Below are positions 12,116 to 55,806 of a stretch of 55,806 bases of DNA, in pieces (the stretch's first letter is position 1; each line of letters opens with the position of its first letter). This stretch comes from Cyanobacteria bacterium P01_D01_bin.156. GTDB taxonomy: Bacteria > Cyanobacteriota > Cyanobacteriia > Phormidesmidales > Phormidesmidaceae. Position numbers and translations under genes: made by a program. The DNA lies in the NCBI GenBank assembly GCA_039024555.1, contig JBCCQQ010000043.1, forward strand, positions 1 to 55,806, in the 5' to 3' direction. The notes beneath the pieces were generated by a model. It made no database searches. It was not told the DNA's origin and saw only the letters and a program-made list of their open reading frames with translations.

Positions 12116-12531
12116 TACTCTTCGTCTCCGTCCTCGTACTCATCTGGTGGCGGGGTTGGCTGAGTGCCTTTGGTACTTTGATGTACGCTTTTGAGCACGC
12201 TATTCTTCAGTCCAATCAGACCGTCCACCCCAGTAAAGGTGATGTGTTGGAGTAGAAACGGGCGATAGTTTGCACGGTCGGCAGGGGATTGCAGGCCATA
12301 CATGATGCCTTCAAAGCTGACGCATAACAGGGCTACTAAACCTATAAGGCCTGAGAGGTTGTAGAAGGTGCGCTTTGGGTGCCAGAGCGCGTTGGGGAGA
12401 AGGCCAAACCCCTTAGCAGTTTCAGTGGTGGCAAAGTCAGCACCAACACCACGAAAGCGTTGACGGCGGCTACTGCGGCGCTGGCGTCCGCGTTCTTCAT
12501 ACCGTGTTTCTTGGCTATTGGGGTTATCCAT
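12115..12531 (-). CDS. Hypothetical membrane protein
   Basis: GAGGA RBS before ATG 12531 (MDNPNSQ...); Arg-rich N-terminus and one TM segment. Confidence 0.7.
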   Translation of the reverse strand: MDNPNSQETRYEERGRQRRSSRRQRFRGVGADFATTETAKGFGLLPNALWHPKRTFYNLSGLIGLVALLCVSFEGIMYGLQSPADRANYRPFLLQHITFTGVDGLIGLKNSVLKSVHQSTKGTQPTPPPDEYEDGDEE

Positions 12532-12655
12532 CGTGAGTTCCTCAGAGATTATGCAAGGGCAGGGGAGCGGCATTGCTAAGGCGCTTGGCACACGGCCAAT
12601 GCCGCGATTTAGGGGTCTATGGTGCCGCCGCCGAATGGGCACTTTTTGGGTCGTT

Positions 12656-14209: not shown

Positions 14210-14214
14210 CGATA

Positions 14215-35025: not shown

Positions 35026-35626
35026 TCCCTCTCTACACCATAATCAAAAAAGGAAAAGCCGATTCAATTTATTTTTCTTTGCCCCTGTTTTGCTAAGTCT
35101 TATCTATGGTGTATTTCTTGGGGTTTCCGATCAAATATATCCCAATTTTCTCAAGACATACCAAATAGAAACCAAGTTTATTACTGATTTCGTCATTGAT
35201 AAAGCTATATTCTTTGATGACGTTCATCAGAAACTTGTGAATAATGGATATAGAGATCGAGTCTTATTCGTACGCCATGCGTATGGGATTTCTTATTTAT
35301 TCACAATATTTACTTTGTGTTGGATGGTATTTTTTTCAGCAAAAAATATAAAAGAAATCAAGAATAGGAACAACGAATCTTTGTTAAAGATTTTTGCTAC
35401 ATCTGTGGGGTTTTTTATTATTGGTTTCGTTGTTTATTACATGAGCTATGTAGAAATTACTTTTGAAGCGGTAGAAATTGACCATCGCTCAAATAATCTC
35501 CATGTCAACCCATTTGATCTTGCATATGTATATGCAGGTAACTTGCTTAGCCCTTTTTTTATATGGGGGTCTTTAAGTGGACTATTTTTAGCGTTCAAGG
35601 AGTTAATGAACAATGACATCAAATAA
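35018..35626 (+). CDS. Multi-pass membrane protein (possible immunity protein)
   Basis: About four hydrophobic helices; overlaps both neighbours; likely GTG start at 35018. Confidence 0.7.
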   Translation: MNNPSLHHNQKRKSRFNLFFFAPVLLSLIYGVFLGVSDQIYPNFLKTYQIETKFITDFVIDKAIFFDDVHQKLVNNGYRDRVLFVRHAYGISYLFTIFTLCWMVFFSAKNIKEIKNRNNESLLKIFATSVGFFIIGFVVYYMSYVEITFEAVEIDHRSNNLHVNPFDLAYVYAGNLLSPFFIWGSLSGLFLAFKELMNNDIK

Positions 35627-38600
35627 TATTGAAATAACCTATCAAGGTATTGTAGGCGGGTTAGAAGGATATTTTAATGCCCTGCTAACACCAGAAAATA
35701 GAGCTATCGCCGAGATAACATCTAACTCAACAAATCTATTATTAAAAGGCTCCGCACAAACCCTGGGACAGCTTCAATCAGTAAAAAAAGTTGTAGATTC
35801 GGGAAACCCCCAACGGGAAGTGATGGTACAATTTACCGCCTTTTCAATCGGGGTGATTGCAGGGAAACTTGCTAAGTTAGGAATAGGAAGAGCTGGCGCT
35901 ACTGATCTGCAAAAAAATGTATTAGGAGGCATAACTGCTGGAATAGTTACTACAACCTTTGCAGAAGATCTTGCCCAAAAAATGTTCCCAGAAGATTGGA
36001 CATTCTCAAAAGCATCTGTCGGTATTTTTGAGTTCTACATCGAAGGTATCAGGGTGGCATTTAACGGTGTTGGGAGTGTCATAGATACAGTTATAGGAGA
36101 ATCTGACTTATCCGCTGCTGAGAAACAGGCACTGAGCAATGAGTTAAAAGGCGCAATTGAGATAGAAATACAAAAAATTACAGCACCCGATATCATCACT
36201 TCATTAGAGAATAATGTATTCGCTTTTGCAAAAGATGCCTACTTAGTTGATCCTGACATCGTATACCAATACTCCTATACCGATGAGCAAGGCAATCTAA
36301 CGCAACAAGATATTACTTTGTATGACCTGATCATGCAGAATGTATCGGAAGAAGCCACCAACATGGCAGAAATGATCTGGGAGGGTACCAACGGCCAGCG
36401 GTATGCCGTCATTACCCCCGATTCTTTCATTACCCTAAACGGCACACAATATAAAATTGCAGGTATCCCCATAGATGCCAAAGAGGACGAACGCACCGTT
36501 TCATCCGATGGTGACACACCAACTATTCTTCTTGGTTCTAAAGAAGATGACATGCTCTATTCCAATGGGCCTGGTGATATTGTTCTCGCTGGCCCTGGTG
36601 ACGACACCCTTGTTGGTGCAGTGATCACGGAAGAACAACATGACGAGGCACCTGCTTACGAAGCCTTCTCTTTCCTTTTCGGGGGTGAAGGCAGCGATCA
36701 ATACTACACAGGTAATTATTCCTATGTGATTGATGATGGTAATGGCGACAGCATTACCTTTGAACCGCCTAAAGGGGAAGAAGACTTTCACTCAATCCCT
36801 GTCGATGGTAGCTCTAGGGTTTTTCCAGACGCTACCCCATTCCCTTTTGTGGGCGACACGGGTATTGTCACTTTTACATCCAATACCAATACACCTATTG
36901 GCATGGTGAGCTTTGATGAAAGCGATACGTACCTGCTCGATGCTGATGCTACCGTGTTCACCCATGATGGAACAGAAGGGTATGTGACGCCAAATGGACG
37001 ACAGACCATTGGTTTTACCAATGGCCCTAACCCAGTTACCCACGAGTTATTGGCTGGCCTTACCTACTTTCAATATGAAGGTGCCACGGTTGTAGAGCGT
37101 CCGTATTTTATGGATGTAGATTTAGAAGGACGTATTGCCACACTAGGGGAAGGCGACCGCTTCTTTATTAGTAAGCCTAATGGTGACACCCTAAGCCCTG
37201 GCGACTTTGGCATCCATTATCAATATACTGAATTCTATTATCACCCTAGCTGGGACCCAACGATAGAATCGGATACACCGATACTAGAATATGATATTGG
37301 GATTCGTGAATATACAGGGACTGAACAACCTGAGTACCTTAGCAGGGATACCACAAAGTTTGATGGTCAATTGCAAGGTATCAATGATGATTTAGCCTTG
37401 GCATCTCTTAGTAAGGTAGGCCCTAACCAAGACGTACCTACTTTTGAGATTACTGATACCTTCCCAAACTTCTTCGACGGCCCATTTGAAATCACCCCAC
37501 CTTCCACTGATTTCAGCACTGAAACCTTAGACATCACCGTTAAAGGAGATACGTACATTGATTATGCACGTTTCAACGTGACGGTGGATGGCACCATGGT
37601 GGCCCGTGAACTCGCGGCAACCCAAGCCAATTGGCAAGAAGGCACCACCTTCTCTCTGCAAGTGCCAGGGCTGCAACCTGACAGCCGTGTTGAAATTGAA
37701 TTCACCAATGATATCGACGATGGTACCTGGGATACCAACAGAAACCTCTATGTGACTGCCGTTAGTATTGCGGGACAAGAACAAGACCTGAATACAGGAA
37801 CCTTCACCGCCAATGGCTTAACCAGTCAGAACAGCGGTAACCTTTGGGTGAATGGGACATTTGTCCTTAACCCCGATGGCCCTGCTAATCCAGGTGGGAA
37901 TACAGGTAACAGCCAGGATGCTCCCGCCACCATCGTCATACTTGCTAATGGGGAAACCTCCCCACAAGGCCCTGTCTTTGATTTACTGATTGATGGCCAA
38001 GTCGTTGCGGCCAATAATCAGGTGACTGCCCTCAACTGGCAAGCACCACAGTTGTTCACCTTCAATGTCCCTACGTTGTATAGCGATAGCCGTATTGAAG
38101 TGGCTTACAAGAACGATGCTGGCGCTGCTGAACGGAATTTGTACATCAAAGATGTGCAGGTTAATGGGGCTACCCTTGATCGAAACACAGCCACCTTTGA
38201 GGCTAATGGCATGAGTAGTGCCAACACAGGGAACCTATGGGTCGATGGTAGCTTTGTGATTGAACCAGGGGAAGCCGCTACCCCTCGCCCTACATCCACT
38301 GGGAATGGAGCCTCTAGCATTGTTGTAGAAGCCAGTGGTACGTCTTGGAACGGTGACCCTGTTTTTCAATTGTTTGTTGATGGACAGCAAGTGGGCAATG
38401 ACACCGCTGTGTCTGCAACTTTCGGCCAGAACGTTGATCGCTTTACCTTCAGTACGCTTGCCCTGACATCTGCCAGTGTCATTGAGGTCAAGTACATCAA
38501 CGATGCTAACAATGGTAATCCTAATGAAGACCGTAACCTGAATATCAATGCGATTGAGGTCAATGGCACTACTTTAGATGCTGGGCAATCCATCTACACC

Positions 38601-39035
38601 TCTTGGGGGCAGTCCACGGTCGGTCAACAGTTCATGTTCGGTATTGGCGACATCACCTACAACATGGCCGATAATCCTGGTGTATCCCTTGGTGGTGCTA
38701 GTGATCCACTAACGAATCCATTTGATGCGAACAACACGCTACGCGGCCAAGGTGTTGGAGATATTCTCATCAATCCTTACAACAGAGCCGATGCCCATGG
38801 TGGAGCCATCTTAACAGGAGGTAATGGCGCTGATACGTTTGTGTATGGCTTAGGAGACGGTGCAGTGGTGATTACTGATTTCCAAGATGACGTAGACAAT
38901 TTGCAACTCATCGCTGGGCAGTCAGACTATGTCACCCGCGATGTGTTGAATGGTACATTCTACGACTTTGGTAATAACCAAGGCGTGCTTGTAGCTGGGA
39001 TTGCTGCACAGGCACTGCAAAACGATCTCGTGTAA
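35613..39035 (+). CDS. Large secreted RTX-type Ca-binding protein with three Ca-dependent carbohydrate-binding-like modules
   Basis: GPGDDTL, GGEGSDQY and GGNGADTF nonapeptides; three repeats F.(V/L).(V/I)DG...IE(I/V).(F/Y).ND...RNL.(V/I)...V; C-terminal VITDFQDDVD.L type I secretion-like tail. Confidence 0.82.
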   Translation: MTSNNIEITYQGIVGGLEGYFNALLTPENRAIAEITSNSTNLLLKGSAQTLGQLQSVKKVVDSGNPQREVMVQFTAFSIGVIAGKLAKLGIGRAGATDLQKNVLGGITAGIVTTTFAEDLAQKMFPEDWTFSKASVGIFEFYIEGIRVAFNGVGSVIDTVIGESDLSAAEKQALSNELKGAIEIEIQKITAPDIITSLENNVFAFAKDAYLVDPDIVYQYSYTDEQGNLTQQDITLYDLIMQNVSEEATNMAEMIWEGTNGQRYAVITPDSFITLNGTQYKIAGIPIDAKEDERTVSSDGDTPTILLGSKEDDMLYSNGPGDIVLAGPGDDTLVGAVITEEQHDEAPAYEAFSFLFGGEGSDQYYTGNYSYVIDDGNGDSITFEPPKGEEDFHSIPVDGSSRVFPDATPFPFVGDTGIVTFTSNTNTPIGMVSFDESDTYLLDADATVFTHDGTEGYVTPNGRQTIGFTNGPNPVTHELLAGLTYFQYEGATVVERPYFMDVDLEGRIATLGEGDRFFISKPNGDTLSPGDFGIHYQYTEFYYHPSWDPTIESDTPILEYDIGIREYTGTEQPEYLSRDTTKFDGQLQGINDDLALASLSKVGPNQDVPTFEITDTFPNFFDGPFEITPPSTDFSTETLDITVKGDTYIDYARFNVTVDGTMVARELAATQANWQEGTTFSLQVPGLQPDSRVEIEFTNDIDDGTWDTNRNLYVTAVSIAGQEQDLNTGTFTANGLTSQNSGNLWVNGTFVLNPDGPANPGGNTGNSQDAPATIVILANGETSPQGPVFDLLIDGQVVAANNQVTALNWQAPQLFTFNVPTLYSDSRIEVAYKNDAGAAERNLYIKDVQVNGATLDRNTATFEANGMSSANTGNLWVDGSFVIEPGEAATPRPTSTGNGASSIVVEASGTSWNGDPVFQLFVDGQQVGNDTAVSATFGQNVDRFTFSTLALTSASVIEVKYINDANNGNPNEDRNLNINAIEVNGTTLDAGQSIYTSWGQSTVGQQFMFGIGDITYNMADNPGVSLGGASDPLTNPFDANNTLRGQGVGDILINPYNRADAHGGAILTGGNGADTFVYGLGDGAVVITDFQDDVDNLQLIAGQSDYVTRDVLNGTFYDFGNNQGVLVAGIAAQALQNDLV

Positions 39036-41020: not shown

Positions 41021-41452
41021 CTATCGCACGGTGCTCTTTGCTGCCAATTGCGCCAGATATTCCTCATCAGTCATCTCTAAATCCACTATCTGTGGTGGGG
41101 GGTTCTTCAACCTATCTAGGACATATTCAGGATCACGAGGAAAGCCCTCAAGGCCTAGTTCATCTAGCTTTTCATGTAGAGCCTGGAACATGGCTTCAAA
41201 TCCATAAATTGGCCCCATAATATCGTCAGAATACAAGAAACGTTCACTGTAGTTACCAACAAAAACAGAATACCTATTACGTCTTGGATTAAATCCTAGA
41301 ATTGCTGTGATTCCACTATCGAAATCAACCGTAAGATCAACATAAAAGGCTTGGAACGAAATATAATCTTGACCTGTCATCAAACACTCTTTCAAAAAAG
41401 GAGTGTTATAACAAAAAACCAAATGCCAGTGAACCCTTGTCCTACAAAGCAT
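41021..41452 (-). CDS. Hypothetical protein
   Basis: Acidic ORF; the start is probably the internal MTGQDY (about 41380). Confidence 0.6.
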   Translation of the reverse strand: MLCRTRVHWHLVFCYNTPFLKECLMTGQDYISFQAFYVDLTVDFDSGITAILGFNPRRNRYSVFVGNYSERFLYSDDIMGPIYGFEAMFQALHEKLDELGLEGFPRDPEYVLDRLKNPPPQIVDLEMTDEEYLAQLAAKSTVR

Positions 41453-44400
41453 TAAAGCTGAATAGCTCAGTTAATAATTCATTACGATAACGGCCAGGAA
41501 ACACAGATGACTTGTGCATTTCTCCTTTTTCCATCACCTCAACAATTGCCTCACTGCACCTTTCTAAGTAGAGGAACAAATAGCCATTAAACTGATGCTT
41601 ATGCTCATGGCGGTTAGCATCACTATACAGGCCACCAAGCAATGCTTTTACCTCCGTGCAACGCGACTTTTTATCATCAGAGGTGTAACACCTGAGCGCA
41701 GCACAAGCCGCAGCCATCACACAACCAATGTCAGTGACCTCAGCAATCTTCAGCGGAAACAGGTTCCATACGCTCATGGCATGCTTATCAAGCAGGTCAT
41801 TCTCGATGCCCTGGTCATCTTTCTCTAGCTGACGGCTGATATGCCTTATGCCATTTTCATCAATACTTACATCGCATCCGTTTCCAGCCAAGGCGTAGGC
41901 ATACGTGAATAATCTATAGCAATGCTCTAGCTTAGAATCCCATTGTTCTGGGGTTGCTACGTCTTCTTCAAACTCCTCAGCAGCATCACTACAAAGATGA
42001 TACAGCCCCCGTATCAGGAATAAGTGGCAAGACTGCGGTCCAAACAGGTAAATGATTTCACTACTGTTGGGGTTATCACTATCTACCCATCCTCGCTTAA
42101 TTGATAGGTACCGCATATCCAAATCCAGCACGCCTTTTTCGGGCTTATAACCAGGTACGTCATCGTTAATTGTTTCCCTTATTTGCGGTAGGGACTCTAC
42201 TGTGCAGTTCCCATAGGGTTGAGCTTTAATGGATATGCCACTTTTTTCTTTGGTCGCGTGATAACACTGCTTACCCGTTTCCGCGTACTGAATCAGACAG
42301 TGGTTTCTAAGACTCTTGGCCCAGGCTAGGCTCTGATGCTTATTAAATGTCCCCTTTCGCCCGAGTTGGCTCAGGCTCGCATCAATTCGCAACCTACCAT
42401 CCCCAATGGTAAACGCCGTCATCAACCAGGCTCGACACTGATAGGCAGTGCAAATGACATACAAGACGTCATCCCCATCACACCCCGCGTATACACGCGC
42501 TCGTTCCAACAGGTACAAACGATTACGGTTTGAATGTTCAGGAGAATCACGCCTAGTCGTGTTATCTAAAACAAGGGGTGTATATACAGATTTATCTGGC
42601 GGAACGATGCTCGGATACCAGAACAACAACATCGCTCGATGCAGATAAATTTGTGCTAATAGCTGATAATAGGGCCTAGCTGTTGCCTGATGCGACTGCT
42701 CAATCATATGGTATTTAAGCAGTCGCACGGTTAAATGTTGCTCTGCCCGTATCAAACGCGTCCACGCTTGCTCGATTAAATCAGTCCGAGTAATTCGTTC
42801 CTTTTCTAATACGTTATGCTCCAAAGCGTTTAGGCAATATCTTCTATCGCGCTGCGCCACTTCCCCATCTAATACCGTGAAATATCGAGCAAGGCACATC
42901 TCATACCTTGCCATCAGCTGGCCAGACACCACATGAAATGGCATCGGCTCCTTTAAAGTACTGCTGAAGTTTTTTTCATGCTCATCTAGTTTCTCACTAT
43001 TACATTCTTTAAGCCATGCAATCCCACTGATCGCGTCTTCGTTCAACGCATCATGGACTTTCTCAAGGTATTCATAAGCCCTGTTGTAGTTACCCTCTAC
43101 CAAGAAGGTTTCTGCCACGGTCAGTCGAGCGTTATGCACCACTGTCGTATCGGGCTTTCCTGCTAGCTCAGCTTTGTCCAGTAGCTGTTCATCCATCCAA
43201 CCAGATAACGCGAAAGATGAAAACGGATACCCTGTCAATAACCCCTGCGCCTGCTCCAACCAATACCGCTGTTCCACGCGATGCAATACACCTTGCAGAT
43301 ACTTTTTCTTATCAATGTCTGAGGCATTCACGATGGCCTCTAGCCGGGACAACATCACCGCATTCGCTAAACTCGTCACCATATCAATGTGGGTAAACGA
43401 TGCGCTCCCTCGTGCATCGCGGCCTGCAAAGACGTCATAACGTTTAATACCTTCATCTGGGTTCTTCGCCGTGGCCCTCATCGCCTTTATCAAGGTATCG
43501 TTACGGCACAACTGGACAAAGCTATGTGATACAGCCGCAGGCGACATCTGCTGATGCGCCTCCGCTTGCTTCACATAGATATCACGGGCAATCGGGTAGT
43601 AAATATCTCGCAGACAAGCAATATCAGACAACAAAGCCTGGTTCATTGCACGGGTTATCAAGCTACTGCTCCCCGACAATCCAGTTGTTGAAATCTCGAA
43701 ATGTAACCTTTTAGCCATGCCTACCGTGCTTTGCAAGCCCTCGGAGACCTCCCCATCTATACCAAGCCCCTGCTTATCTCCTTCTTTATTCAAGCGAATA
43801 TAAAAGTCTAATATCACCCGCATCACAGGACGTGACGGCAATTGCGTGAGCAATTTATCGATGGGTGCTCCACCAATCGCCTTCTCCTCATTTACTGTCA
43901 GTAAGGTGTCAGAAAACCAGCTCACCGTTGGGTCATCATCTGGTCTGGGGAGAGGAAACGGCCCAACTGGCTCTAATGCGACTTTCTTTAAATAGACTGG
44001 CAATTGATTCCGTAACTTATTATTTGCCTGTACGGTGGCACTCAACTGCTCGATAAAGTCTGTCCCAAGGTAATGACGAATATAAAATTGCTGAGTAACC
44101 TCCTCAGCATTTGGTTGCTTCAAAAACCGCGTCTGCCCTGTACCAGCTTGCAATAACAGTCGCTCAATCGCATGCTCGATACGGCTGATCTGTTGATCGC
44201 TTTCCCCATCCTGAATGATGAAACTGAGGTCTCCCACATATCCTTTGATCTGATCCAACGTTTCCTTAAATGCGGCACCAGTGCCCTTTTGAGATGGATT
44301 GTCCAGGGACAGTTCATAGACTTCCCTATACACATCTGGTACCGTCTCACCCTCAATCGTCGCTAAATTAATAAACGCTTTCTGTAATAGCGGGTGTTGG

Positions 44401-44894
44401 CTATGCACTGGCAGATTCAGTAATTGCAGTTCCTCTGGCGATAGCTGAGTAAACACCTGTAAGGCTTCTAACAGTTGGGCATTCGTCGGGACTGGCACCT
44501 CATTTCTATGGCGCTCACCATTAGTGCCCTTTTTGATGATGTATTTATTTTCTAAACGCTGACGCAGTCGATTGATGACTGCAACCAAGGTATTGATATT
44601 ATCAACAACCTCTCCCTTCCTAAATTTAGCGCCTTTAGTGGTCGCAGCACCCCGCTGCTCGTCAAAGTCATATCCAAACAAGTAATCGCCAAAAAATCGC
44701 GCACTATATGGCCTATCTGCTTTTTTATCTTCTGGTGGGGGCTCGTGAGGTACCTTGAGCAGCACCCGCACAATGTAATCAACAATGGCTAAGTGACGTG
44801 TTTGATTATGTGTAGCATCCTCTTTGATTGGATCATATGCTGGCTTTTTAATTTTCTTAGATGACTGATCTTCAGGCGATGTGGAGTTGGGCAT
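41442..44894 (-). CDS. Large helical (TPR-like) hypothetical protein, 1150 aa
   Basis: Uninterrupted ORF with TPR-like segments (ARLTVAETFLVEGNYNRAYEYLEKV; YQLLAQIYLHRA); no NTPase motif seen. Confidence 0.8.
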   Translation of the reverse strand: MPNSTSPEDQSSKKIKKPAYDPIKEDATHNQTRHLAIVDYIVRVLLKVPHEPPPEDKKADRPYSARFFGDYLFGYDFDEQRGAATTKGAKFRKGEVVDNINTLVAVINRLRQRLENKYIIKKGTNGERHRNEVPVPTNAQLLEALQVFTQLSPEELQLLNLPVHSQHPLLQKAFINLATIEGETVPDVYREVYELSLDNPSQKGTGAAFKETLDQIKGYVGDLSFIIQDGESDQQISRIEHAIERLLLQAGTGQTRFLKQPNAEEVTQQFYIRHYLGTDFIEQLSATVQANNKLRNQLPVYLKKVALEPVGPFPLPRPDDDPTVSWFSDTLLTVNEEKAIGGAPIDKLLTQLPSRPVMRVILDFYIRLNKEGDKQGLGIDGEVSEGLQSTVGMAKRLHFEISTTGLSGSSSLITRAMNQALLSDIACLRDIYYPIARDIYVKQAEAHQQMSPAAVSHSFVQLCRNDTLIKAMRATAKNPDEGIKRYDVFAGRDARGSASFTHIDMVTSLANAVMLSRLEAIVNASDIDKKKYLQGVLHRVEQRYWLEQAQGLLTGYPFSSFALSGWMDEQLLDKAELAGKPDTTVVHNARLTVAETFLVEGNYNRAYEYLEKVHDALNEDAISGIAWLKECNSEKLDEHEKNFSSTLKEPMPFHVVSGQLMARYEMCLARYFTVLDGEVAQRDRRYCLNALEHNVLEKERITRTDLIEQAWTRLIRAEQHLTVRLLKYHMIEQSHQATARPYYQLLAQIYLHRAMLLFWYPSIVPPDKSVYTPLVLDNTTRRDSPEHSNRNRLYLLERARVYAGCDGDDVLYVICTAYQCRAWLMTAFTIGDGRLRIDASLSQLGRKGTFNKHQSLAWAKSLRNHCLIQYAETGKQCYHATKEKSGISIKAQPYGNCTVESLPQIRETINDDVPGYKPEKGVLDLDMRYLSIKRGWVDSDNPNSSEIIYLFGPQSCHLFLIRGLYHLCSDAAEEFEEDVATPEQWDSKLEHCYRLFTYAYALAGNGCDVSIDENGIRHISRQLEKDDQGIENDLLDKHAMSVWNLFPLKIAEVTDIGCVMAAACAALRCYTSDDKKSRCTEVKALLGGLYSDANRHEHKHQFNGYLFLYLERCSEAIVEVMEKGEMHKSSVFPGRYRNELLTELFSFNAL

Positions 44895-45476: not shown

Positions 45477-47723
45477 ATGTTCAACCTCTCTCATGTCCTA
45501 CACTTTCGTTCCATCAAGGGTGCCTTCCAGTGGGCGTACCGTACTGTGGGGGATGTCTTTCAGTGGTGTCTTCGCACCCCGAAGGCCACCCTGCATGCCT
45601 GGCAGGATCTCGTCCAGCATGGCCCTTTCCCTGGACTCCAGATTAAAATCGCCTCCTTGGCCCACCAGCCAACGCTAGAGCACTGGATTGCACGCCTCCT
45701 CCCCGATTGGCTGGAGCATGTACTGGTTCTTGGCACTGGCCTGGCCGTTATGGGTTTAGCAGCCTGGATCGCTGCCTTAGACCCCATTGGCGCTGTCATC
45801 GGTACCGAGCTTATCTGGCCCCTGGTCAATGTCGGCATCACCTTCGGCATCGCCACTTATGGCCTCCAGCTTTATAAAGAGGATATCTGGCTGCGCCATA
45901 AGATTCAGCCCTGGGTCTGCCTCGCTGCCGTCTCTGTCTTCGCAGCACTCAGCGTCATTATCCCCATTCCCTTTATGATTGGCCCTGCGATCGCAGCCGC
46001 TTGGTGGTTCCCCCGCCGTGTTCATTACTTGCAAGTCGAGGACAGGCTATGGCAGCAAGACGGAGTAAACCACCCGTTACGACACCTGCCATACGGTCAG
46101 GTGCATCGTGAGAAACTTGCTGCTGTTCCTATTGGGGAAGACGTTCTTGACTGGGGTGGTATCCCCATCCGCTACAGCGAGGCTGTGTTGAACTTCCTCG
46201 TGGTAGGTGCGATCGGCTCTGGCAAGACCATCATGCTGCGCTTGTTTTTACAGACCCTTCTCCCTCATATCCACAAGGGAGGCACTAAGCGGGCTATCGT
46301 CTTTGACGCCAAACAAAACCTACTACCCATCCTTAAAGGCATCAATCCTGATACCCCTATTCACATCCTCAATCCGTTTGATGCTCGCCATGCCAAGTGG
46401 GATATGTCCATGGACATCAACACCATGGCCGACTGCGTAATGCTTGCAGCTGCCTTTACCCCTGAGCAGGCGGGGGACAAAAACCCCTTCTGGCGTAACA
46501 TCTCACGCCAAATGTTCACAGGGCTCTTCAAATACTATTACCTCAATGTGCCAGCAGGGCAGTGGACTTTTCGAGACGTCTTACTCGCTACTCAATCGCC
46601 CAGCCTGTTGATTGCGCTCCTTCGCAGCTGTGATGACACTAAACAGTATGCCGATATGCTCGATCGGCCTGGCGAGCTAAGCCATAACATCATGGTGACC
46701 GTGCAAACCTATTTGCATGAGCACTACGTCATTGCAGCGCTTTGGGAGCAAGCCGCTTACAAGATCAGCCTCAAGCAATGGATTAAAGAAAGTTCTATTC
46801 TCCTCCTCGGGAACAGCAACCAACACCAAGTGATTCTCTCCTCAGTGAATCGATTGTTGCTTCGGCTACTTAAGCCCATCATCTCTGATATGCCTGCAAC
46901 CCTTAATCCTGTTGCAGAAACCTTTATCATCCTCGATGAATTTACCCGCCTTGGCAGAATTGAAGACCTCGAAGGCTTCATCAACACGGCTCGTGATAAG
47001 GGAGTGAGCACCTTCCTCATCACCCAAGATGAAACCGATGCTGAAACCGTTTATGGCCAAAAAGAAGCCAACACACTCTTTGGACAATTTCACCACAAAG
47101 GCTTCTTTCGTCTCAACAGCACCGCCAGCGATAAGTGGGCATCTGCACTAGCTGGAACTGCTAAACGGCGCATGATTAAACGGGTACGCAACATGAGTGT
47201 TAAGCCCGATTACGAATGGCGTAACAACGATCTCTATGAAGAGAAATACGACGACGGTTCCGCCTACTACCGTATGGAAACCACCCGTGTCCTTCAGCCA
47301 GGGAAACTCAGCGCTATCCCCATCCCTAAACCTGGTAAGCAAGGGGTGAAAGGCTTCTACATGGACGAACGAGCGTATTGGTACACCACACCATCCTGGT
47401 ATATCAGTCAGCACTTACAGAGAAAAGACGAGCGGGTCAAACACTTTGAGTCCTTTAAATCCCACACCACACAACTCGTAGAGCCTTGGACTGAAGCCGA
47501 CGTTCAGCGCCTGGGTTTACCCTTCACCAGGGAGCAAATGCACGAGTTTGGGATTGAAGCAGAGCGTATTATGCGAAACGCCTCGCAAGCCTGGGATACA
47601 GCAGAAAATCCCACTTCTTATGGGGATGTCGTTGATGAAACCGTCACCACTGACAGCGGTTTTGATGGTGGCCTCAATACGGAAGCTAGCAACGAGTTCC
47701 CCGACCTTGATCTCTTTAACTAA
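45477..47723 (+). CDS. Type IV coupling protein (TrwB/TraD/VirD4-like)
   Basis: N-terminal TM helices, Walker A GAIGSGKT, VFDAK, LNPFDAR, NPFW, Walker B IILDEF and ARDKG. Confidence 0.9.
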   Translation: MFNLSHVLHFRSIKGAFQWAYRTVGDVFQWCLRTPKATLHAWQDLVQHGPFPGLQIKIASLAHQPTLEHWIARLLPDWLEHVLVLGTGLAVMGLAAWIAALDPIGAVIGTELIWPLVNVGITFGIATYGLQLYKEDIWLRHKIQPWVCLAAVSVFAALSVIIPIPFMIGPAIAAAWWFPRRVHYLQVEDRLWQQDGVNHPLRHLPYGQVHREKLAAVPIGEDVLDWGGIPIRYSEAVLNFLVVGAIGSGKTIMLRLFLQTLLPHIHKGGTKRAIVFDAKQNLLPILKGINPDTPIHILNPFDARHAKWDMSMDINTMADCVMLAAAFTPEQAGDKNPFWRNISRQMFTGLFKYYYLNVPAGQWTFRDVLLATQSPSLLIALLRSCDDTKQYADMLDRPGELSHNIMVTVQTYLHEHYVIAALWEQAAYKISLKQWIKESSILLLGNSNQHQVILSSVNRLLLRLLKPIISDMPATLNPVAETFIILDEFTRLGRIEDLEGFINTARDKGVSTFLITQDETDAETVYGQKEANTLFGQFHHKGFFRLNSTASDKWASALAGTAKRRMIKRVRNMSVKPDYEWRNNDLYEEKYDDGSAYYRMETTRVLQPGKLSAIPIPKPGKQGVKGFYMDERAYWYTTPSWYISQHLQRKDERVKHFESFKSHTTQLVEPWTEADVQRLGLPFTREQMHEFGIEAERIMRNASQAWDTAENPTSYGDVVDETVTTDSGFDGGLNTEASNEFPDLDLFN

Positions 47724-47770
47724 GACGTCACCTTATCCATTTCTTTCTGTTCTTCATTCCCTTCATCATC

Positions 47771-48235
47771 ATGACTTTAAGCAATAACAACAAATCCGAT
47801 TCCAACGAGTGGGTGGTGGACATCTTGTGGCTCATCACTAAGATCGCAGGTGTGCTTTTCTTTGGCGTTCTCCTCGTTGGCACCCTGGTGTACATCATCA
47901 AGCTCCCTTGGGTCATTCCCACCGTCGCCATCATGTTTGGTGTCTTGTTTGCCTGGGTTGCCCTTGAAAAAGGGGTTTCAGTGTTCAACCGCTTTGAACT
48001 CTATCCCTGGATCAAGCTGGCATCCCTCCTCGGCTTCTTCTTCGGGCTCTGGCTGTGGTTACCCTCCATCGCCACACCACTGGCCACCATGGCCTTCTTT
48101 GATGTTGCGGCCCTTCCCAGCTTCGTCGGTGCCCTCCAAGCTTATGACCCCACTGGGGTTTTCTACATGCTCGGCTGCGGCACCACTCGCCTGGTGTTTG
48201 AAGCCCTGCCCCGCTTGATGCGGCCACGGGACTAA
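47771..48235 (+). CDS. Hydrophobic membrane protein
   Basis: Four or more TM helices; in the T4CP operon. Confidence 0.7.
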   Translation: MTLSNNNKSDSNEWVVDILWLITKIAGVLFFGVLLVGTLVYIIKLPWVIPTVAIMFGVLFAWVALEKGVSVFNRFELYPWIKLASLLGFFFGLWLWLPSIATPLATMAFFDVAALPSFVGALQAYDPTGVFYMLGCGTTRLVFEALPRLMRPRD

Positions 48236-48310
48236 TCACCATATTCGGGGTGGCCTTTCTCCCACCCCATCAGGGTGCCAATTGTTGTTGTTCATTCCAG
48301 GTACATATCC

Positions 48311-49042
48311 ATGCCCGATATTATGTTCTTCGCTGGTGAAAAAGGCGGCGTTGGGAAATCTTTCACCTGTCGCGCTGCTGTCCAGTACGCCATTGACCAT
48401 ACCCTCCAACCGTTAACCGTCATCGAAAGTGACCGCTCTAATCCCGATGTCATGCGTATCTACGGCAAGCACGTTGATTGTAAGTTAGCCATCTTTTCCG
48501 AAGGCGAAAAGTTCCAGGACACCGCTAATGGCATCTACATCGCTGCCGCTGACCAGCGCCATCACGTCATCGTCAATATGCCAGCCCAAGTGCTTCCAGC
48601 CATCAAACAATGGTTTGAGCATAACGAGCTGCTCGCGATCGCAAAGGATGACGGTGTGCGATTTATCTTCTTCTTTGTCACTGATGGTGGATACGATTCG
48701 TTGAACCTGCTGAAAAAGTCCCTCACATACTTCGATGGCCGTGCTCACCACATCATCTTGAAGAACTACGGTATGACCGACGACTTCGAGGCCTTCGACC
48801 AGGACGTCGCCGTCCAACGCCTCATCAAAAAGTACAAGGCTCCTGTGATGGACTTCCCCAAGCTCATTGGCAGTGTTGAGCGTAACCGGCTCGATGCTGA
48901 GTCCATCCCTTTTGGGGAAGCACTCACCCTTGACGGGTTCAACTCTATCAGCCGCCAGCGGGTGCGGAAGTTTCTGCGTGAGGCCTACAGCACCTTCGAC
49001 CAGACCCCATTAGCCATGGAGCACGCCAGTGACGCAGCGTAA
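48311..49042 (+). CDS. MobD/TraL-like ParA-family mobilisation ATPase
   Basis: GEKGGVGKS, ESDRSNPDV, VIVNMPA and C-terminal RQRVRKFL. Confidence 0.8.
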   Translation: MPDIMFFAGEKGGVGKSFTCRAAVQYAIDHTLQPLTVIESDRSNPDVMRIYGKHVDCKLAIFSEGEKFQDTANGIYIAAADQRHHVIVNMPAQVLPAIKQWFEHNELLAIAKDDGVRFIFFFVTDGGYDSLNLLKKSLTYFDGRAHHIILKNYGMTDDFEAFDQDVAVQRLIKKYKAPVMDFPKLIGSVERNRLDAESIPFGEALTLDGFNSISRQRVRKFLREAYSTFDQTPLAMEHASDAA

Positions 49043-49721
49043 AGACCTGATCGATACCGCCCTCGCCCACCGTTCTACCAAAGAACGCGCTCGTGTCCTC
49101 GACCTGGTACGCAAGATGGGTGTATCTCAAGAGGACGACTTCTGGCTTATCTTTATCGCCATCGGCCAGCTTCAGGTGCTGATAGAAGATACCCCCGTTC
49201 AGTGGCAAGCCATTTTTGATGATTTTAAGGAGTATCTAGGCCAATGGTCAGACAAGAACGTAGAATTGATGACCCTGCTCGACACCCAGAACCAGGGCAT
49301 CGCCATGCTGGCGGAGGACATTCAATACTTACAGACCGTCTCTGGGGAAAACTCACAAAGGCTGATAGCCTCCTTCAACGAATTAGCAACTCTATTAGCA
49401 ACACTCGGCAAAGTATCGAACGAATCCGAGCACCACGTGGCCCATCTCACGACCGCAGTCCAGCATCTCCAAAACCAGAACAGCCAATTAATCACACAAA
49501 TGAGCACCATGGCCGAGGAGATGACCGCCATCAGGACGACCCTCAACACACCCCACCGCACTAGCTGGTGGATACCATGGGGAATCGGAGCAATGCTCTT
49601 CATGAGCGTCATCACTAGTATTGGCCTTGCCAATGCTCATAACCGACTCGATAGAGCTGAGGCTCCCAAGCCGCCTTCAGATGTGATGCAGAACGGCTGG
49701 ATTACTGGCCCACCAGAATAA
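49029..49721 (+). CDS. MobE-like coiled-coil protein with C-terminal TM segment
   Basis: RVLDLVRKMGVSQEDDFWLIFIAIGQLQVLIEDTP; overlaps the mobD-like gene. Confidence 0.7.
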   Translation: MTQRKDLIDTALAHRSTKERARVLDLVRKMGVSQEDDFWLIFIAIGQLQVLIEDTPVQWQAIFDDFKEYLGQWSDKNVELMTLLDTQNQGIAMLAEDIQYLQTVSGENSQRLIASFNELATLLATLGKVSNESEHHVAHLTTAVQHLQNQNSQLITQMSTMAEEMTAIRTTLNTPHRTSWWIPWGIGAMLFMSVITSIGLANAHNRLDRAEAPKPPSDVMQNGWITGPPE

Positions 49722-49725
49722 ACAC

Positions 49726-50199
49726 CTAACCTGACACGATCACATCAGAAAGCCCCATTAATTCCTTAAGACGCTGCATGTCAGGGGATTGGGGCTTTTC
49801 TGCTGGTATCTCTTGCTGGGCGGCAGCGATTCTTGCTCGTATTTTCTGTTTCAGACGAGGTAAATCAATAGAAAATTGTTCCGACCCCTGTGGTGTAAGC
49901 GGCTTTCTATAGTTTGGGTTATCGTTCCTATCTCTAATCAGATCCAGCTTTTCACCAATACTTTTTCTTATTTTCTCCGACATCTCGTTATAAGAGTTTT
50001 TTTCCAGGTTTTTCTCGACAACAATCTGATGAGCCTGAAGCAACGTTAGATTATCAGGATCAAGAGATTGTAGATTAGGACTCAGTAAAGTACCTTCTTG
50101 CAAAGTCCTCTTTGCAATCAACATCGTCAGCTGTTCGCTTGCTGGCTGAATATCAAGTTTATTAACCATGCAAATAGTATGCACGCTTTTCATATGCAT
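49726..50199 (-). CDS. Hypothetical protein (partner/immunity candidate)
   Basis: 12 nt downstream of 50212..51348 on the same strand. Confidence 0.6.
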   Translation of the reverse strand: MHMKSVHTICMVNKLDIQPASEQLTMLIAKRTLQEGTLLSPNLQSLDPDNLTLLQAHQIVVEKNLEKNSYNEMSEKIRKSIGEKLDLIRDRNDNPNYRKPLTPQGSEQFSIDLPRLKQKIRARIAAAQQEIPAEKPQSPDMQRLKELMGLSDVIVSG

Positions 50200-50211
50200 T
50201 TAAAGCATATT

Positions 50212-51348
50212 TTATCGCTCTATAGTTGGCATTGGAGGAGAAGGTGGCTCAGGTTCCTTAGTGTTGAATCGCGAGTTTTCTGGCTTCTCTCGCTGCTCTT
50301 GCTCCTCCTTCCTTAATTGTTGTGCTGCTTCTGCGGTTGTTTCTTTGGCGTGTTTCTCACGAACTTGAAATGAGCAGCGTCCAAGCAAGTATGGCGAATT
50401 ATCCCTGACTAAACTGACAACACTTTGCTCACTTGGAGAGAGCTTAGTGCCCAGTCGATTGGTCTCTTGCGCACGTGACTCTTGTTTCTTAATGACTTCT
50501 TTCGTAGCCAAAATGTCAGTGCCTTTATTGTAGGCTTTATCGATACCTAATTCATTAACCTTAGCTGCCCAAGCTTGATAATAGTGATCCAATAAAAGAT
50601 GTTGATTAGGTGGAATGTTTTCTATTCCTTCTAACCGTTTATTAATGAGTGTCTGTGCGTCATTTTTGATTTTTTCTAGCTGGCCTTCGGTGAAAGTTTC
50701 GTGGGTTCCTGTCGAGGCCTCAGCAGTATTTCTCTGAGCTTGTTGTAAATCAAATGGACTCTTTTCCTTGTCGATAAATCTGTCCTGAACTGCATCATTG
50801 GCACGACCCAGCAGCTCTTGATTCTTGATATCCTTTTGAACTTCGTCCTTTGTAGGCATACCTGGCGCACAATGACCTTGAACCATTGATGGTCGAGGCT
50901 GCATGACCTGGCGCGTCACTTCATGCCGTTGCCCCTGCCTGTCTTCCAAGCGCTCCGATTGCGCTTTCACCCTCGCCGCTTCCTGCTGGCCCTTGGCCTC
51001 CAATGCTTCTAATTTCGTCTGTAACCGCCCTCTATCGTGCAGCGTCTTCGCAATAGCAGCCTTTTGCTCCTGAGCTTGCTTCAGCAGCTCAGCTCTTTCT
51101 TTGTTCTGTGCCGCCGATAGGGTACCATCACCAAGAATAGTCGGCTTCAACGCCGTACTTATCAACCCGACAGCAGGAACTACTTTATTCCCAATCCGAC
51201 TCCCCCAACGACCAAGCATTGACCCACCCTGGGACTTTTCCTGCACTGGTAGCTGCGGTCTATTGTCGTTAGCTGCTGGTTTAATCAGCGGTGTCCGCTG
51301 CGATTGTTGACGATTCGGTTCAGGTGATTTCCGTGCAGGCTGTGCCAT
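50212..51348 (-). CDS. Putative conjugation-translocated protein with one RepB'-C-like helical domain
   Basis: AANDN motif; PTILGDGTL hydrophobic segment; LDHYYQAW...G...TDILA...RDNSPYL domain; PEPPSPPMPTIER tail. Confidence 0.65.
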   Translation of the reverse strand: MAQPARKSPEPNRQQSQRTPLIKPAANDNRPQLPVQEKSQGGSMLGRWGSRIGNKVVPAVGLISTALKPTILGDGTLSAAQNKERAELLKQAQEQKAAIAKTLHDRGRLQTKLEALEAKGQQEAARVKAQSERLEDRQGQRHEVTRQVMQPRPSMVQGHCAPGMPTKDEVQKDIKNQELLGRANDAVQDRFIDKEKSPFDLQQAQRNTAEASTGTHETFTEGQLEKIKNDAQTLINKRLEGIENIPPNQHLLLDHYYQAWAAKVNELGIDKAYNKGTDILATKEVIKKQESRAQETNRLGTKLSPSEQSVVSLVRDNSPYLLGRCSFQVREKHAKETTAEAAQQLRKEEQEQREKPENSRFNTKEPEPPSPPMPTIER

Positions 51349-51369
51349 GAGATTTCGGGGAATAAACGA

Positions 51370-52677
51370 CTATCGACTAGGCGTATGTGAGGGCGGTGTT
51401 GGCGTTGGTGGAGCTTGGTTCTGCGTCTGTTGCTGAGGGTTCGCACTAGAAAGATTCAACTGGTCTAAACGACGCTCATTGGTCATGCCATTAGCCTGCT
51501 TCCACTGCCATATTTGAGCCCTTGCCTGCTGGACTTTTAGCTGACCAAGGGGCTTTACAACGTGCTCTCGGATATATCCTTCCTTAACCGCTACGGACTC
51601 TCCAACAATTGCCACCGAACCCCGATGCACCGCATCCATAATTTTCTCTCGGCCAAAACCAGCAGCAAACAGTCGAACACTGATCTCTTCATCATGCTTT
51701 GCCCCTTGCATGCCTTTGACGGCCTCAAGCCCGTCTCGTCCAATAACGCGCCCTAGCTCTTTGCGATATTCGCGAATTGCTGAACCACGATAACCTTCGT
51801 AATCGTCTTTCTTCAGCTCAGTTACAGCCATTTCAATCTGTAACGCCTGCGCTTTTTGTTGGGGGGTTTTAGGCTCGGGAGGTTGATTTTCTTGGCTCCA
51901 CTTCAATATGGCTATTGTAGCCACCCGTTGCCCATAGGCTTTACGGTCTTCTAGCTGATGATGCTCTACGACTGGAGAATGATTTGCGATAACCGCTGCA
52001 ATATCTCCTTTAGCAATCGGCGTGTCCTTGTCGTCTCGTACATCCCTCGCTTGGAAAAAGGTCAGCTTCTCTGCGATCGCAACATCCGTTGCTTGTGATA
52101 TCGCACTATGGCCTTTGTGCTTGACCTGTATTTGAAGATTTCTGTGATAATGATCTTCAAGCGTCGTAGGCCGATGCACATCAAGATTGACGACATTTTT
52201 AGCCGTCACCGTTGGTTTAACGGACGCTGTCTGGGTTGCTGCTGGCTGTGATGGTTGGTTGCCCTGGCGTAGCATGTTGCTACTCGCCATCATGCGGTAG
52301 GCATTGCGCTGGGATGCATCCATGACCGCAGCTCGTTCTTTCAAGCTGATTAGTTGCGTTTGCAGTTCCTGCCGATGGACTGATGGGGCGGCCACAGGAG
52401 GCTTAACAATATGATGGCCATTTGTCGCATGTAACGAGGTCATCATCAGTTGCTCTCGCCCTTGCTGCTCCTGTTGGGCTATAGCAATCTTCTGCGCTTT
52501 TAATGATGGTTGTACTTGATGTTCACCCCGAGGAGCAGTCCCTACCCTGCCTCGAAACCAATTTACAACCCGTGACCATCGTCCTGGCCGCTTCGATTGT
52601 TTACTCGTATCGCTGTTATCGTTCGCAGCGGTAGGCGGTTGCTGCCACTGTGTCGGCAGGACTGGAGGCTGAACCAT
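51370..52677 (-). CDS. Putative conjugation-translocated protein with two RepB'-C-like helical domains
   Basis: AANDN motif; LEDHYHRNL...TDVAIAEKL...NHSPV..AY and AIREYRKEL...HDEEISVRLFAAGFGREKI...GYI...VQQARAQI domains; PPTPTPPSHTPSR tail. Confidence 0.65.
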   Translation of the reverse strand: MVQPPVLPTQWQQPPTAANDNSDTSKQSKRPGRWSRVVNWFRGRVGTAPRGEHQVQPSLKAQKIAIAQQEQQGREQLMMTSLHATNGHHIVKPPVAAPSVHRQELQTQLISLKERAAVMDASQRNAYRMMASSNMLRQGNQPSQPAATQTASVKPTVTAKNVVNLDVHRPTTLEDHYHRNLQIQVKHKGHSAISQATDVAIAEKLTFFQARDVRDDKDTPIAKGDIAAVIANHSPVVEHHQLEDRKAYGQRVATIAILKWSQENQPPEPKTPQQKAQALQIEMAVTELKKDDYEGYRGSAIREYRKELGRVIGRDGLEAVKGMQGAKHDEEISVRLFAAGFGREKIMDAVHRGSVAIVGESVAVKEGYIREHVVKPLGQLKVQQARAQIWQWKQANGMTNERRLDQLNLSSANPQQQTQNQAPPTPTPPSHTPSR

Positions 52678-53006: not shown

Positions 53007-54710
53007 GGGCTTGCTGAAAAAGTCCATCGTTCAGCCTTAGCAAGGGTTTCGTTCTATTGAGATTTGATTAAGTGCAAGGGAAACTGGCTAAGATGCTCAA
53101 AACCCTTGCAGCTAACTCAGGGAAATGTACCGACAATCATCACCAGGCCAGCTATCATTCGAGGATTTTTATTTGCCGTTTGGGGGCAAATTATCGTCAG
53201 AGAACCGCTGGGTGAAACTGGCCGAAATTATCCCATGGGAGGAGTTTGAATCGAGCTATGCTAGCCAGTTCAGCGAGGATATAGGAGCGCCAGCGAAGGG
53301 GTTTCGGATGGCGTTGGGAGCGTTGATTATCAAAGAGAAATTGGGTATCAGCGACCGAGAGACGATAGAGCAGATCCGAGAGAACCCGTATCTTCAATAT
53401 TTTCTCGGACTTCATGAGTACAGTGATACGCCTCCGTTTGATGCGTCAATGATGGTTCATTTCCGCAAACGCATCGGTTTGGAGCTGGTAATATCCGTTA
53501 ATGAGTCAGTGGTTGAAGCCGGACTGAATTCAGCGGTGTCCTCACCTCAGGAGCGTTGCGCTGAGAGTGATGATGACTCAGACCCACCGCAACCGCCCTC
53601 TAGTGGCAATCAAGGTCAATTGGTTGTGGATGCCAGTTGCGCGCCAGCCGATATTCGCTATCCGACAGACCTGGATTTGTTGAACGACGCGAGGGAACAC
53701 AGTGAACGTCTCATTGATGAGTTGTATCCACAAGTGGCGGGATGTCTCCCCAAGAAGCCCCGCACCTATCGTCAAACCGCCCGCAGAGATTATCTCAGGA
53801 TTGTGAAACGGCGCAAGAAGCCCCGTAAATTGCTTCGGAAGGGACTGCGACAACAGCTCAACTATGTGCGCCGCAACCTGGGCCACATTGACCGGCTAAT
53901 CGAGGCAGGCGCCACCCTCGCAGCCCTCAATCCAGGGGAGTACAAGACACTGTTGGTGATTCATGAAGTCTATCGCCAACAACAGCACATGTACGACCAA
54001 AAGCAGCGGCGGATCGATGACCGCATTGTGAGTATTTCACAGCCCCATGTACGCCCGATTGTACGTGGTAAAGCGGGCAAACCTGTCGAGTTTGGCGCTA
54101 AATTCGATATCAGCTGTGTGGCAGGTTATGTGTTTCTAGACCATCTCAGTTGGGATAACTTCAATGAATCCAAACACTTGATTACACAGATAGAACGGTT
54201 TCGAACTCGAACCGGGCACTATCCTGCCTCAGTCCATGCCGACCAGATTTATCGAACACGAGATAACGTGAGGTGGTGTAATCAGCAGGGCATCCGTCTG
54301 AGTGGCCCGCCTTTGGGTCGTCCTTCCCTGGATGAGGCTTCACAAGAACTCCGCCGACAACAAGCCCAAGACGATGAGGGTGTGCGAAACGCTGTTGAAG
54401 GCAAATTTGGTCAGGGTAAACGACGATTTGGACTCGGACGGGTGATGGCCAAACTCGCCCAAACTGCCGAAACCATGATTGCTATCACCTGCTTGGTGAT
54501 GAACTTGGAGAAACGGCTACGCCGTTTAATTGTTTTGTTGTTGAGGGTGTTGATACGCTTACTATGTGCCTATCAGACAGATGTGCGCCACTTTGCCGCA
54601 ACATTAGGCAATGACTGGCAGAAATCTCTCGTTTATGGGCGATGAAAGGCGGATCACCTCCGGGCGACCGGATAACCCCTGAGATTTTGATTGAGTTTTT
54701 CAGCAAACCC
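53007..54710 (+). mobile_element. IS5-family insertion sequence
   Basis: Terminal IRs gggcttgctgaaaaagtc / gagtttttcagcaaaccc; TAATTA direct repeat at 53001-53006 and 54711-54716. Confidence 0.93.
53125..54645 (+). CDS. IS5-family DDE transposase
   Basis: ENRWVKLA, ENPYLQYFLG, VDASC..DIRYPTD, RGKAGKPVEFGAK, ADQIY and RNAVEGKFG motifs. Confidence 0.95.
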   Translation: MYRQSSPGQLSFEDFYLPFGGKLSSENRWVKLAEIIPWEEFESSYASQFSEDIGAPAKGFRMALGALIIKEKLGISDRETIEQIRENPYLQYFLGLHEYSDTPPFDASMMVHFRKRIGLELVISVNESVVEAGLNSAVSSPQERCAESDDDSDPPQPPSSGNQGQLVVDASCAPADIRYPTDLDLLNDAREHSERLIDELYPQVAGCLPKKPRTYRQTARRDYLRIVKRRKKPRKLLRKGLRQQLNYVRRNLGHIDRLIEAGATLAALNPGEYKTLLVIHEVYRQQQHMYDQKQRRIDDRIVSISQPHVRPIVRGKAGKPVEFGAKFDISCVAGYVFLDHLSWDNFNESKHLITQIERFRTRTGHYPASVHADQIYRTRDNVRWCNQQGIRLSGPPLGRPSLDEASQELRRQQAQDDEGVRNAVEGKFGQGKRRFGLGRVMAKLAQTAETMIAITCLVMNLEKRLRRLIVLLLRVLIRLLCAYQTDVRHFAATLGNDWQKSLVYGR

Positions 54711-55490: not shown

Positions 55491-55665
55491 CTATCGTGCT
55501 GGAAACGGTGGCCTTGGTGGCTCAGGCGGATTGTTATCGTTCACTGGCAATTTTGATTGCTGGGTTGCTGTTTTTTCCTTAAAAGACTTACGCCCAGAAG
55601 CTTTCCCTTTTATATCAGCACTCTCCTCTTGCCGCTGTATCCGCTGCTGTTCCACCGTGCGGTAA
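55491..55665 (-). CDS. Relaxase, 3' end (continuation across the circular join)
   Basis: In frame with 1610->1 (1610+175=1785 nt); ends ...PVNDNNPPEPPRPPFPAR. Confidence 0.88.
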
Positions 55666-55806
55666 ACCCGATTCACCAACTGATTGATGTACGACACGCG
55701 CTGCGATGGTTGATAAGCCATCAGACCAGGACTCGCCTGTGCCAATACCCGACGCAGCTGCCCACGGCTATATCCCAGCCGTGCCAATCGCTCCGCTAAG
55801 AATCTA
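55666..55806. repeat. Terminal direct repeat (assembly overlap), copy 2
   Basis: Exact 141-nt copy of 1-141. Confidence 0.97.

Follow-up and report, generated by a model that had tools for sequence, protein, structure and literature searches.

A primase-type helix bundle on the relaxase and two neighbouring proteins of a cyanobacterial plasmid: a candidate coupling-protein tag for conjugation cargo

The window analysed here is the whole of contig JBCCQQ010000043.1 (C43), 55,806 nucleotides from the 6.6 Mb genome of Cyanobacteria bacterium P01_D01_bin.156. It is a complete circular plasmid of 55,665 bp with a 141-nt terminal overlap, positions 55666-55806 duplicating 1-141, and a public contig also closes the circle. 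The subject of this work is a single domain, the C-terminal helix bundle of the RepB' primase (Pfam PF22448, RepB_primase_C; hereafter HBD), which ends the MOBP relaxase of the plasmid and recurs in a non-relaxase protein, A435, and remotely in another, B378, and which may mark them for the type IV coupling protein (T4CP). The mob region consists of two halves facing each other, one on the plus strand (45477-49721) and one on the minus strand from mobC to C157. The minus-strand order is mobC, the relaxase gene, an insertion sequence, a 128-amino-acid (aa) open reading frame (ORF), A435, B378 and C157, and the intergenic gaps in the A435-B378-C157 run are 21 and 12 nt. At a related locus, L031, the gene order is identical and the insertion sequence is missing. 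All ORFs of a preliminary description of this DNA were found at their stated coordinates, and those relatives among the search matches that bear names are cyanobacteria. The features on which the argument rests are as follows.

1-1610, minus strand: MOBP relaxase of 594 aa, aa 1-536; runs from 1610 to 1 and continues from 55665 to 55491
55491-55665, minus strand: end of the relaxase, with the end of its HBD, a VNDN motif and a Pro-rich tail
51370-52677, minus strand: A435, with a low-complexity N-terminal part (aa 1-165), two HBD copies and a Pro-rich tail ending in Arg
51883-52179, minus strand: A435 HBD copy 1 (aa 167-265), paralogous to the domain in B378; an insertion separates helices 2 and 3
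51448-51801, minus strand: A435 HBD copy 2 (aa 293-389) plus an RRLD extension common to the terminal domains of MOBQ/MOBP relaxases
50212-51348, minus strand: B378, with a helical, low-complexity N-terminal part, one divergent HBD-like domain and a Pro-rich tail ending in Arg
50299-50613, minus strand: HBD-like domain of B378 (aa 246-350), remote
49726-50199, minus strand: C157, small and soluble, lacking an HBD; its gene closes the run, and it is a possible partner
45477-47723, plus strand: T4CP, TrwB/TraD-like, the presumed reader of the tag

The preliminary description had seen one sequence pattern at the end of the relaxase, twice in A435 and once in B378, and had likened it to the bundle of MobA-RepB'. 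For the relaxase and A435 this was borne out, since PF22448 (cut-off 26.1 bits) scored 34.0 bits in the relaxase (E 2.8e-8), where the HBD begins at nt 233 and spans the origin of numbering, and 43.2 bits over two stretches of A435 (E 3.6e-11). The likeness in fold was upheld for A435 copy 1. The AlphaFold model of A435 is confident for residues 171-262 only, and the model of residues 169-269 found RepB' (3h20, residues 217-307) as the best of 48,161 chains, with Z 9.9 and an rmsd of 3.4 over 85 aligned residues against a runner-up at Z 6.2; helical bundles can reach middling Z by chance, and the match is concordant with Pfam. The models of A435 copy 2 and of B378, each drawn from 3-4 sequences, are of low confidence, and the fold search with B378 returned generic helical matches, with 3h20 at Foldseek rank 22 (E 4.1), and no usable match in the ESM Atlas. 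Upstream of the bundle, the AEP catalytic domain (PF16793) was not detected by Pfam in the relaxase, A435 or B378.

The three proteins also have in common an (A/V)ND(N/Q) motif (ANDN at aa 18-21 of A435) and the Pro-rich, Arg-ending tail, as first noticed. Among the 3,807 frames of at least 200 aa in the genome the motif occurs in 45 and the tail in two, the number that A435 and B378 alone contribute, and the shared motif and tail are far above genome background. Two tails from one locus resemble each other more than do two from different loci (mean 3.6 vs -3.9; 41 pairs, which are not independent and include both the window and L031).

The bundle of B378 is more distant, and that part of the description stands only as remote homology by profiles via the first domain of A435. 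PF22448 was matched neither in B378 and three of its relatives nor in the 157-aa ORF of C157. When searched against about 4,300 ORFs, a profile of A435 copy 1 gave the protein P0008 as its top non-self match (E 2.4e-8), and the B378-family profile gave A435 copy 1 as its first non-self match (E 5.4e-5). Alignment of the two families by hhalign yielded E 9.8e-5 at 58% probability, and A435 copy 1 and the B378 domain cluster in a quick tree (SH-aLRT 89). P0008, the one distant relative of B378 returned from 1.84 billion representatives, bridges B378 to A435. Because of these reciprocal profiles, the family alignment, the tree grouping and the bridge, all four segments are probably homologous, that of B378 remotely. 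The homology requires profiles, since BLASTP gave nothing significant when the window proteins were compared in pairs or P0008 was compared with A435; a scan of metagenomes with the B378 alignment returned no relative. P0008 and an HBD-bearing MOBP relaxase, P0019, each have a Pro-rich tail that ends in ER; both are recorded on contigs of 7,342 nt, which are probably one and the same. A resemblance of a hydrophobic stretch in the N-terminal part of B378 to the bacteriocin translocation motif found no support in Pfam and was dropped.

The initial proposal that the domain was taken from the relaxase of this plasmid was not supported by comparison. A435 copy 2 is identical at 37/96 and 38/96 positions to the bundles that end MOBQ relaxases on other elements, as against 11/56 to its own relaxase, and in a domain tree of only 104 columns, many of whose forks are unresolved, standalone and relaxase copies are intermixed (8 and 7 changes). 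For these two reasons the origin of A435 would fit repeated capture of relaxase 3' ends, not duplication of the resident relaxase. One might then regard A435 and B378 as functionless remnants of such 3' ends, as the resemblance of the C-terminal half of A435 to the two-bundle ends of MOBQ relaxases and the insertion sequence upstream of A435 would permit. This is hardly tenable, being largely refuted by the selection test: the frames are intact, and against L031, at dS 0.7-1.4, dN/dS is 0.14 for A435, 0.23 for B378 and 0.22 for C157. It falls to 0.07 in each HBD copy of A435 and 0.10 in the HBD-like domain of B378, while the N-terminal parts, at 0.31 and 0.40, are under weaker constraint. A further distant relative of B378 (P0008) and parallel standalone genes at many loci also speak against decay. 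A435, B378 and C157 are conserved in order and under purifying selection, strongest in the bundles.

The C-terminal position of the HBD, its loss of priming residues and its linkage to mob genes point to a tag. The counts lack independence, because the loci compared were selected for having the domain and many are related. The last copy lies at most 75 aa from the C-terminus in 86 of 91 proteins of at least 300 aa (B378 family left out), where 17 would be expected. Residues D238 and R285 of RepB' are required for primer synthesis, as stated in the available part of PMC8567376. Equivalents of both are present in all five primase-linked copies and in one of 112 others, among which L060, L068 and L092 are counted as non-primase despite a RepB-like domain; the pairs are I/R and Q/E in the two copies of A435 and S/Q in the L031 orthologue of the relaxase. 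The proposed link to T4CP/mobDE and relaxase genes was supported by a synteny survey of homologues, in which 49 of 75 non-relaxase carriers, a few of them probably relaxase fragments, have a mob gene no more than 3 kb away; such proximity applies to about 26% of the window plasmid. Of the 26 carriers without such a neighbour, 16 have less than 3 kb of sequence on one side.

The reverse survey, from the coupling protein to the domain, gave a mixed result. A search with the window T4CP found 21 T4CP places, ten of them at known HBD loci, and the nine best scores are among those ten. On the T4CP tree the HBD label clusters (4 changes vs a shuffled mean of 10, in a sampling by domain where kin share labels), and the window T4CP belongs to a clade of five (support 100/98), in every one of which a standalone protein with two HBDs is encoded near mobE. 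There is also a second HBD-positive clade (L034, L041) and an HBD-negative one (L112-L115). This pattern suggests co-evolution of tag and coupling protein. A predicted complex of the cytoplasmic part of the T4CP with A435 165-435 scored 0.00 in both runs, which is uninformative either way.

In a different role, the bundles of A435 and B378 would keep an ancestral binding of single-stranded DNA (ssDNA) or nucleotides and the proteins would coat the transferred strand or aid a primase in trans. The accessible text of PMC8567376 describes that the RepB' bundle binds ssiA and has low-level activity in trans, most named carriers of the HBD are DNA enzymes, and the R285 equivalent is kept in A435 copy 1. 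We nevertheless judge such accessory proteins to be quite improbable. The D238/R285 pair is lost in 111 of the 112 non-primase copies, and no RepB' catalytic domain was found by Pfam in the scanned window ORFs, where a weak match at 17660-19384 (E 0.011) is the only hint of a primase. The terminal position, a fusion to an AbiEii toxin (see below) and the locus-matched tails would also be left unexplained.

The HBD is widely distributed among cyanobacteria. PF22448 matched 26 of 173 genomes of the family, a broader domain alignment 56 of 173, and a MOBF-type alignment 86 of 173 together with 43 of 301 genomes of the class. A first phylum sample searched with a family-biased profile gave 3 of 401, a near-blank that is a query effect, since the second profile matched the 43 of 301. 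Flanks were taken for nearly all places found with PF22448, with the broader alignment and in the first phylum sample, and for 35 regions chosen, favouring unusual ORF lengths, from the class-wide matches of the MOBF-type alignment. Relaxases of three unrelated families (MOBP, MOBQ and MOBF) end in one or two copies of the HBD, most of them lacking a primase catalytic domain, and in one relaxase-primase fusion there are three; PF16793 is present in the relatives L033, L035, L048, L095 and L102. At L060, L068 (a fragment) and L092, MOBF relaxase-helicases are fused to a RepB-like primase and a Cys/His motif, and they end in an HBD.

Among non-relaxases, A435-like proteins with two bundles stand beside mobE at L031, L032, L039, L046, L050 and on a plasmid of Pseudanabaena PCC 7367, and the same layout is found on a plasmid of Gloeothece PCC 7822. 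Other carriers are a family of 450-680 aa immediately downstream of a different T4CP clade and proteins of 120-170 aa in the vicinity of T4CPs or MOBF relaxases. A protein of 130 aa that consists of little besides an HBD is widespread (L066:9070-9462, on contig C12 of the same genome as the window; L074, L077, L080, L081, L084, L086, L087); it follows a conserved gene of 160-180 aa and is divergent from an HBD-ending MOBF relaxase. Related HBD proteins of 290-403 aa (L142:761-3097, L145:7338-8549, L146:7440-8592), which directly follow MOBF relaxases at L145 and L146, give the impression of a nuclease-like N-terminal part that has no Pfam support.

Several carriers are enzymes. An AbiEii toxin with an HBD-like C-terminal domain lies between a T4CP and a MOBF relaxase (L147:8020-9548, minus strand); an upstream ORF of 180 aa, without family, overlaps it, and the arrangement parallels VbhTA. 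A 2,139-aa methylase with a Strawberry-notch-type helicase has an HBD-like end and a Gln-rich tail (L128:3247-9666), and a DUF3854 protein ends in an HBD (L148). Three proteins of 1,392-1,395 aa (L040:956-5134, L041:13800-17987, L042:2979-7157) have a DFDGD motif and RdRP/YonO-like features. Their N-terminal part matches RdRP-like polymerases in the ESM Atlas (0.94), they end in an HBD and a basic tail, and those of L040 and L041 are near mobD/mobE/T4CP genes. YonO-like polymerases are present in cyanobacteria, as noted in the available part of PMC2919709, and the three proteins are candidates for an RNA polymerase delivered by conjugation. The AbiEii, methylase-helicase, DUF3854 and RdRP-like carriers scored 24-48 bits with their own families excluded from the profile, as compared with at most 8 bits in 200 shuffles of each.

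The explanation we favour, and hold to be probable by a modest measure on the strength of these sequence comparisons, is that the T4CP recognises bundle and tail and, together with the relaxase, exports A435 and B378 as non-enzymatic conjugation cargo through the channel of a helper element. The HBD and the short C-terminal tail would form a two-part recognition tag, derived from an accessory domain of the RepB' primase, of which A435 and B378 are clients. The T4CP would bind bundle and tail of relaxase and clients alike, and would pass them to a mating channel that another element supplies. Once delivered, the short, variable, non-enzymatic N-terminal parts would act in the recipient by binding, as establishment or anti-defence factors and not as catalytic toxins. 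C157 might be retained in the cytoplasm as a chaperone or antidote, which is the weakest step. Every step from T4CP binding onward is inferred. An establishment-type binding role seems more likely than catalysis for A435 and B378, because their N-terminal parts are of low complexity, belong to no family and have no membrane-spanning segment. The first observation, a shared domain, motif and tail, was confirmed, and its interpretation as delivered effectors is partly supported. A broader version, tentative at best, is that the mobile elements of cyanobacteria have made the HBD a general, coupling-protein-specific export tag marking a hitherto unlisted set of proteins injected in mating. Besides numerous small proteins of no known kind, these might include toxins of toxin-antitoxin pairs, methylase-helicases and single-subunit RNA polymerases, and A435/B378-C157 would be a module of effector and antidote.

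Toxicity would be a special case of the favoured explanation, in which A435 and B378 are exported toxic effectors and C157 their immunity protein. The gene downstream varies with the type of standalone protein, C157 being conserved and co-oriented beside A435/B378 in 2/2 loci, an Aca2/YdiL-like gene following in L032 and L046 and unrelated genes elsewhere; the tag occurs on the AbiEii toxin of L147, and both proteins have amphipathic N-terminal stretches. We find this unlikely. Pfam, NCBIfam and the ESM Atlas gave no toxin or catalytic family for either protein, so that 'effector' in the sense of toxin is not supported, though an activity of an unfamiliar kind is conceivable, and neither has a transmembrane segment (maximum hydropathy 1.06 and 1.21). 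Several standalone proteins are without a co-oriented downstream gene within 250 nt. C157, which is on record also in a form of 147 aa, has no family assigned, and no evidence for an immunity role was found in its sequence and neighbourhood.

The lack of a recognisable payload may instead indicate that A435 and B378 are not exported and serve in the donor as ligands of the T4CP, whose use they would adjust or limit by acting as adaptors, plugs or decoys. Both are mainly bundle and low-complexity sequence, many relatives of 120-280 aa are little beyond one or two bundles, and the window T4CP has a TraM-recognition-type domain. The same tag is, on the other hand, carried by enzymes that make most sense in the recipient, the C-terminal position and free tail are preserved, and the N-terminal parts vary among loci; a donor-side role is accordingly rated as unlikely, slightly more so than toxicity.

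Several observations weigh against the export reading. VirB4 was not found with the PF03135 and PF19044 models in the genome, which is 99% complete. Eleven of the 21 T4CP loci have no HBD in the examined flanks, relaxases included, which means that the tag is not general, and ten carriers lack a mob gene within 3 kb although their flanks are complete. The net charge of the last 25 aa is +1 in A435, -1 in B378 and +1 in the relaxase, not basic and thus unlike classical signals, while 27 of 43 standalone relatives have a tail charge of +2 or more. On the broad profile B378 scored 7.7 bits, equalled by one of 200 shuffles. The relatedness of the loci and the counting of L060, L068 and L092 as non-primase add to this. 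Furthermore, the isolated RepB' bundle binds ssDNA weakly (~27 uM, according to the accessible text of PMC8567376), so that a DNA-binding role is conceivable.

The remaining features of the mob region are listed here.

1600-2115, minus strand: MobC/NikA-like relaxosome protein
47771-48235, plus strand: membrane protein of 154 aa, encoded in the mob operon and conserved at L031
48275-49042, plus strand: MobD/TraL-like P-loop protein (ATPase)
49029-49721, plus strand: DUF6753 protein in MobE-like position; its gene converges with that of C157, and a hydrophobic helix lies at its C-terminus
53007-54710, plus strand: insertion sequence between relaxase and A435 (DDE transposase 53125-54645); not in the equivalent gap of L031

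The plasmid further carries repA, parAB, ardA, a PIN-domain gene, and restriction-modification and umuC-type genes, and a recognisable VirB-type channel was not seen on it. An operon at 10056-15042 (minus strand) encodes membrane proteins, a P-loop ATPase and an M23 peptidase and had no match to a conjugation family; it may be a divergent transfer module. Upstream of mobC an imperfect inverted repeat (2110-2170) is a candidate oriT, and on its far side lie ardA and a PIN-domain gene pair, as in a leading region. Divergent from the T4CP gene is that of a 1,150-aa protein without family (41442-44894, minus strand), with homologues near mob genes in L032 and L039. Two possible replication genes are those of a RepA_C protein and a primase-polymerase-like protein (6697-7644 and 17660-19384). 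A low-GC stretch encodes a protein of 1,140 aa (35613-39035) that has three CBM60 repeats as well as repeats of a calcium-binding type, and its gene is preceded by a nuclease gene and a membrane-protein gene. Promoter and terminator scans of the window did no better than chance.

The papers behind this analysis that deal with the proteins conjugation machines carry besides the relaxase, and with their recognition, concern proteobacterial systems. The accessible portion of PMC12857230 holds nothing on the HBD, and searches of the main texts of the open-licence literature gave no account of the HBD as a cargo tag. Should bundle and tail be the signal, one profile would list candidate cargo across cyanobacteria, a replication domain would have been co-opted for secretion, and a further domain-type signal would stand beside BID and XVIPCD. 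Cargo would then be predictable from sequence, and proteins could be delivered into cyanobacteria by design.

In XVIPCD, the tag of Xanthomonas type IV secretion effectors, a compact C-terminal domain is read by the coupling protein and joined to variable N-terminal payloads; to our knowledge it serves a killing system, not DNA transfer, and does not occur on relaxases. Its likeness to the HBD is one of this compact C-terminal design. Plasmid proteins are also delivered with DNA, as Sog primase and the SSB, PsiB and ParA/B of pED208, and aid establishment; the accessible parts of the sources (PMC11288057, PMC12282955) report such co-transfer of establishment proteins and describe no dedicated common domain, whereas here one identifiable domain marks the candidates.

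MobA-RepB' of RSF1010/R1162 (PF22448, 3h20) shares with the domain described here the fold, as modelled for A435 copy 1, the conserved D, G, SP and Y positions and the C-terminal place on a relaxase. Unlike in MobA-RepB', the primase catalytic domain is absent and the priming residues are lost, and the HBD occurs also on non-relaxases, in tandem copies and with a Pro-rich, not basic, tail. The bundle was given in the preliminary description as a region reported to carry a transport signal, which is only partly borne out, since the published MobA signals are not mapped to the bundle as such: in the available text of two reviews (PMC10025392, PMC3297438) MobA has two internal signals and is exported by VirB/D4 via its last 48 residues, which by arithmetic are RepB' 276-323 and cover the last bundle helix and the tail.

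The closest parallel is BID, of the Bartonella Beps, VbhT and alphaproteobacterial relaxases, in which a C-terminal relaxase domain with its tail was reused, sometimes in several copies. BID fusions, toxin-antitoxin toxins such as VbhT included, are encoded beside relaxase and other Dtr genes, as far as the accessible part of PMC5675462 describes, and A435 and B378 likewise adjoin T4CP/Dtr genes. The analogy with BID, drawn at the outset, has gained a far broader base of proteins that bear the tag. The HBD is, unlike BID, an unrelated domain for which translocation is proposed, A435 and B378 are without a toxin domain, and no recognisable VirB-type channel accompanies them. Pfam includes a BID model, and no BID domain was found in the window proteins in Pfam and NCBIfam scans. 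A435 and B378 are not members of the BID or VbhT families and probably work, by analogy, like BID-tagged substrates by means of a different, primase-derived domain.

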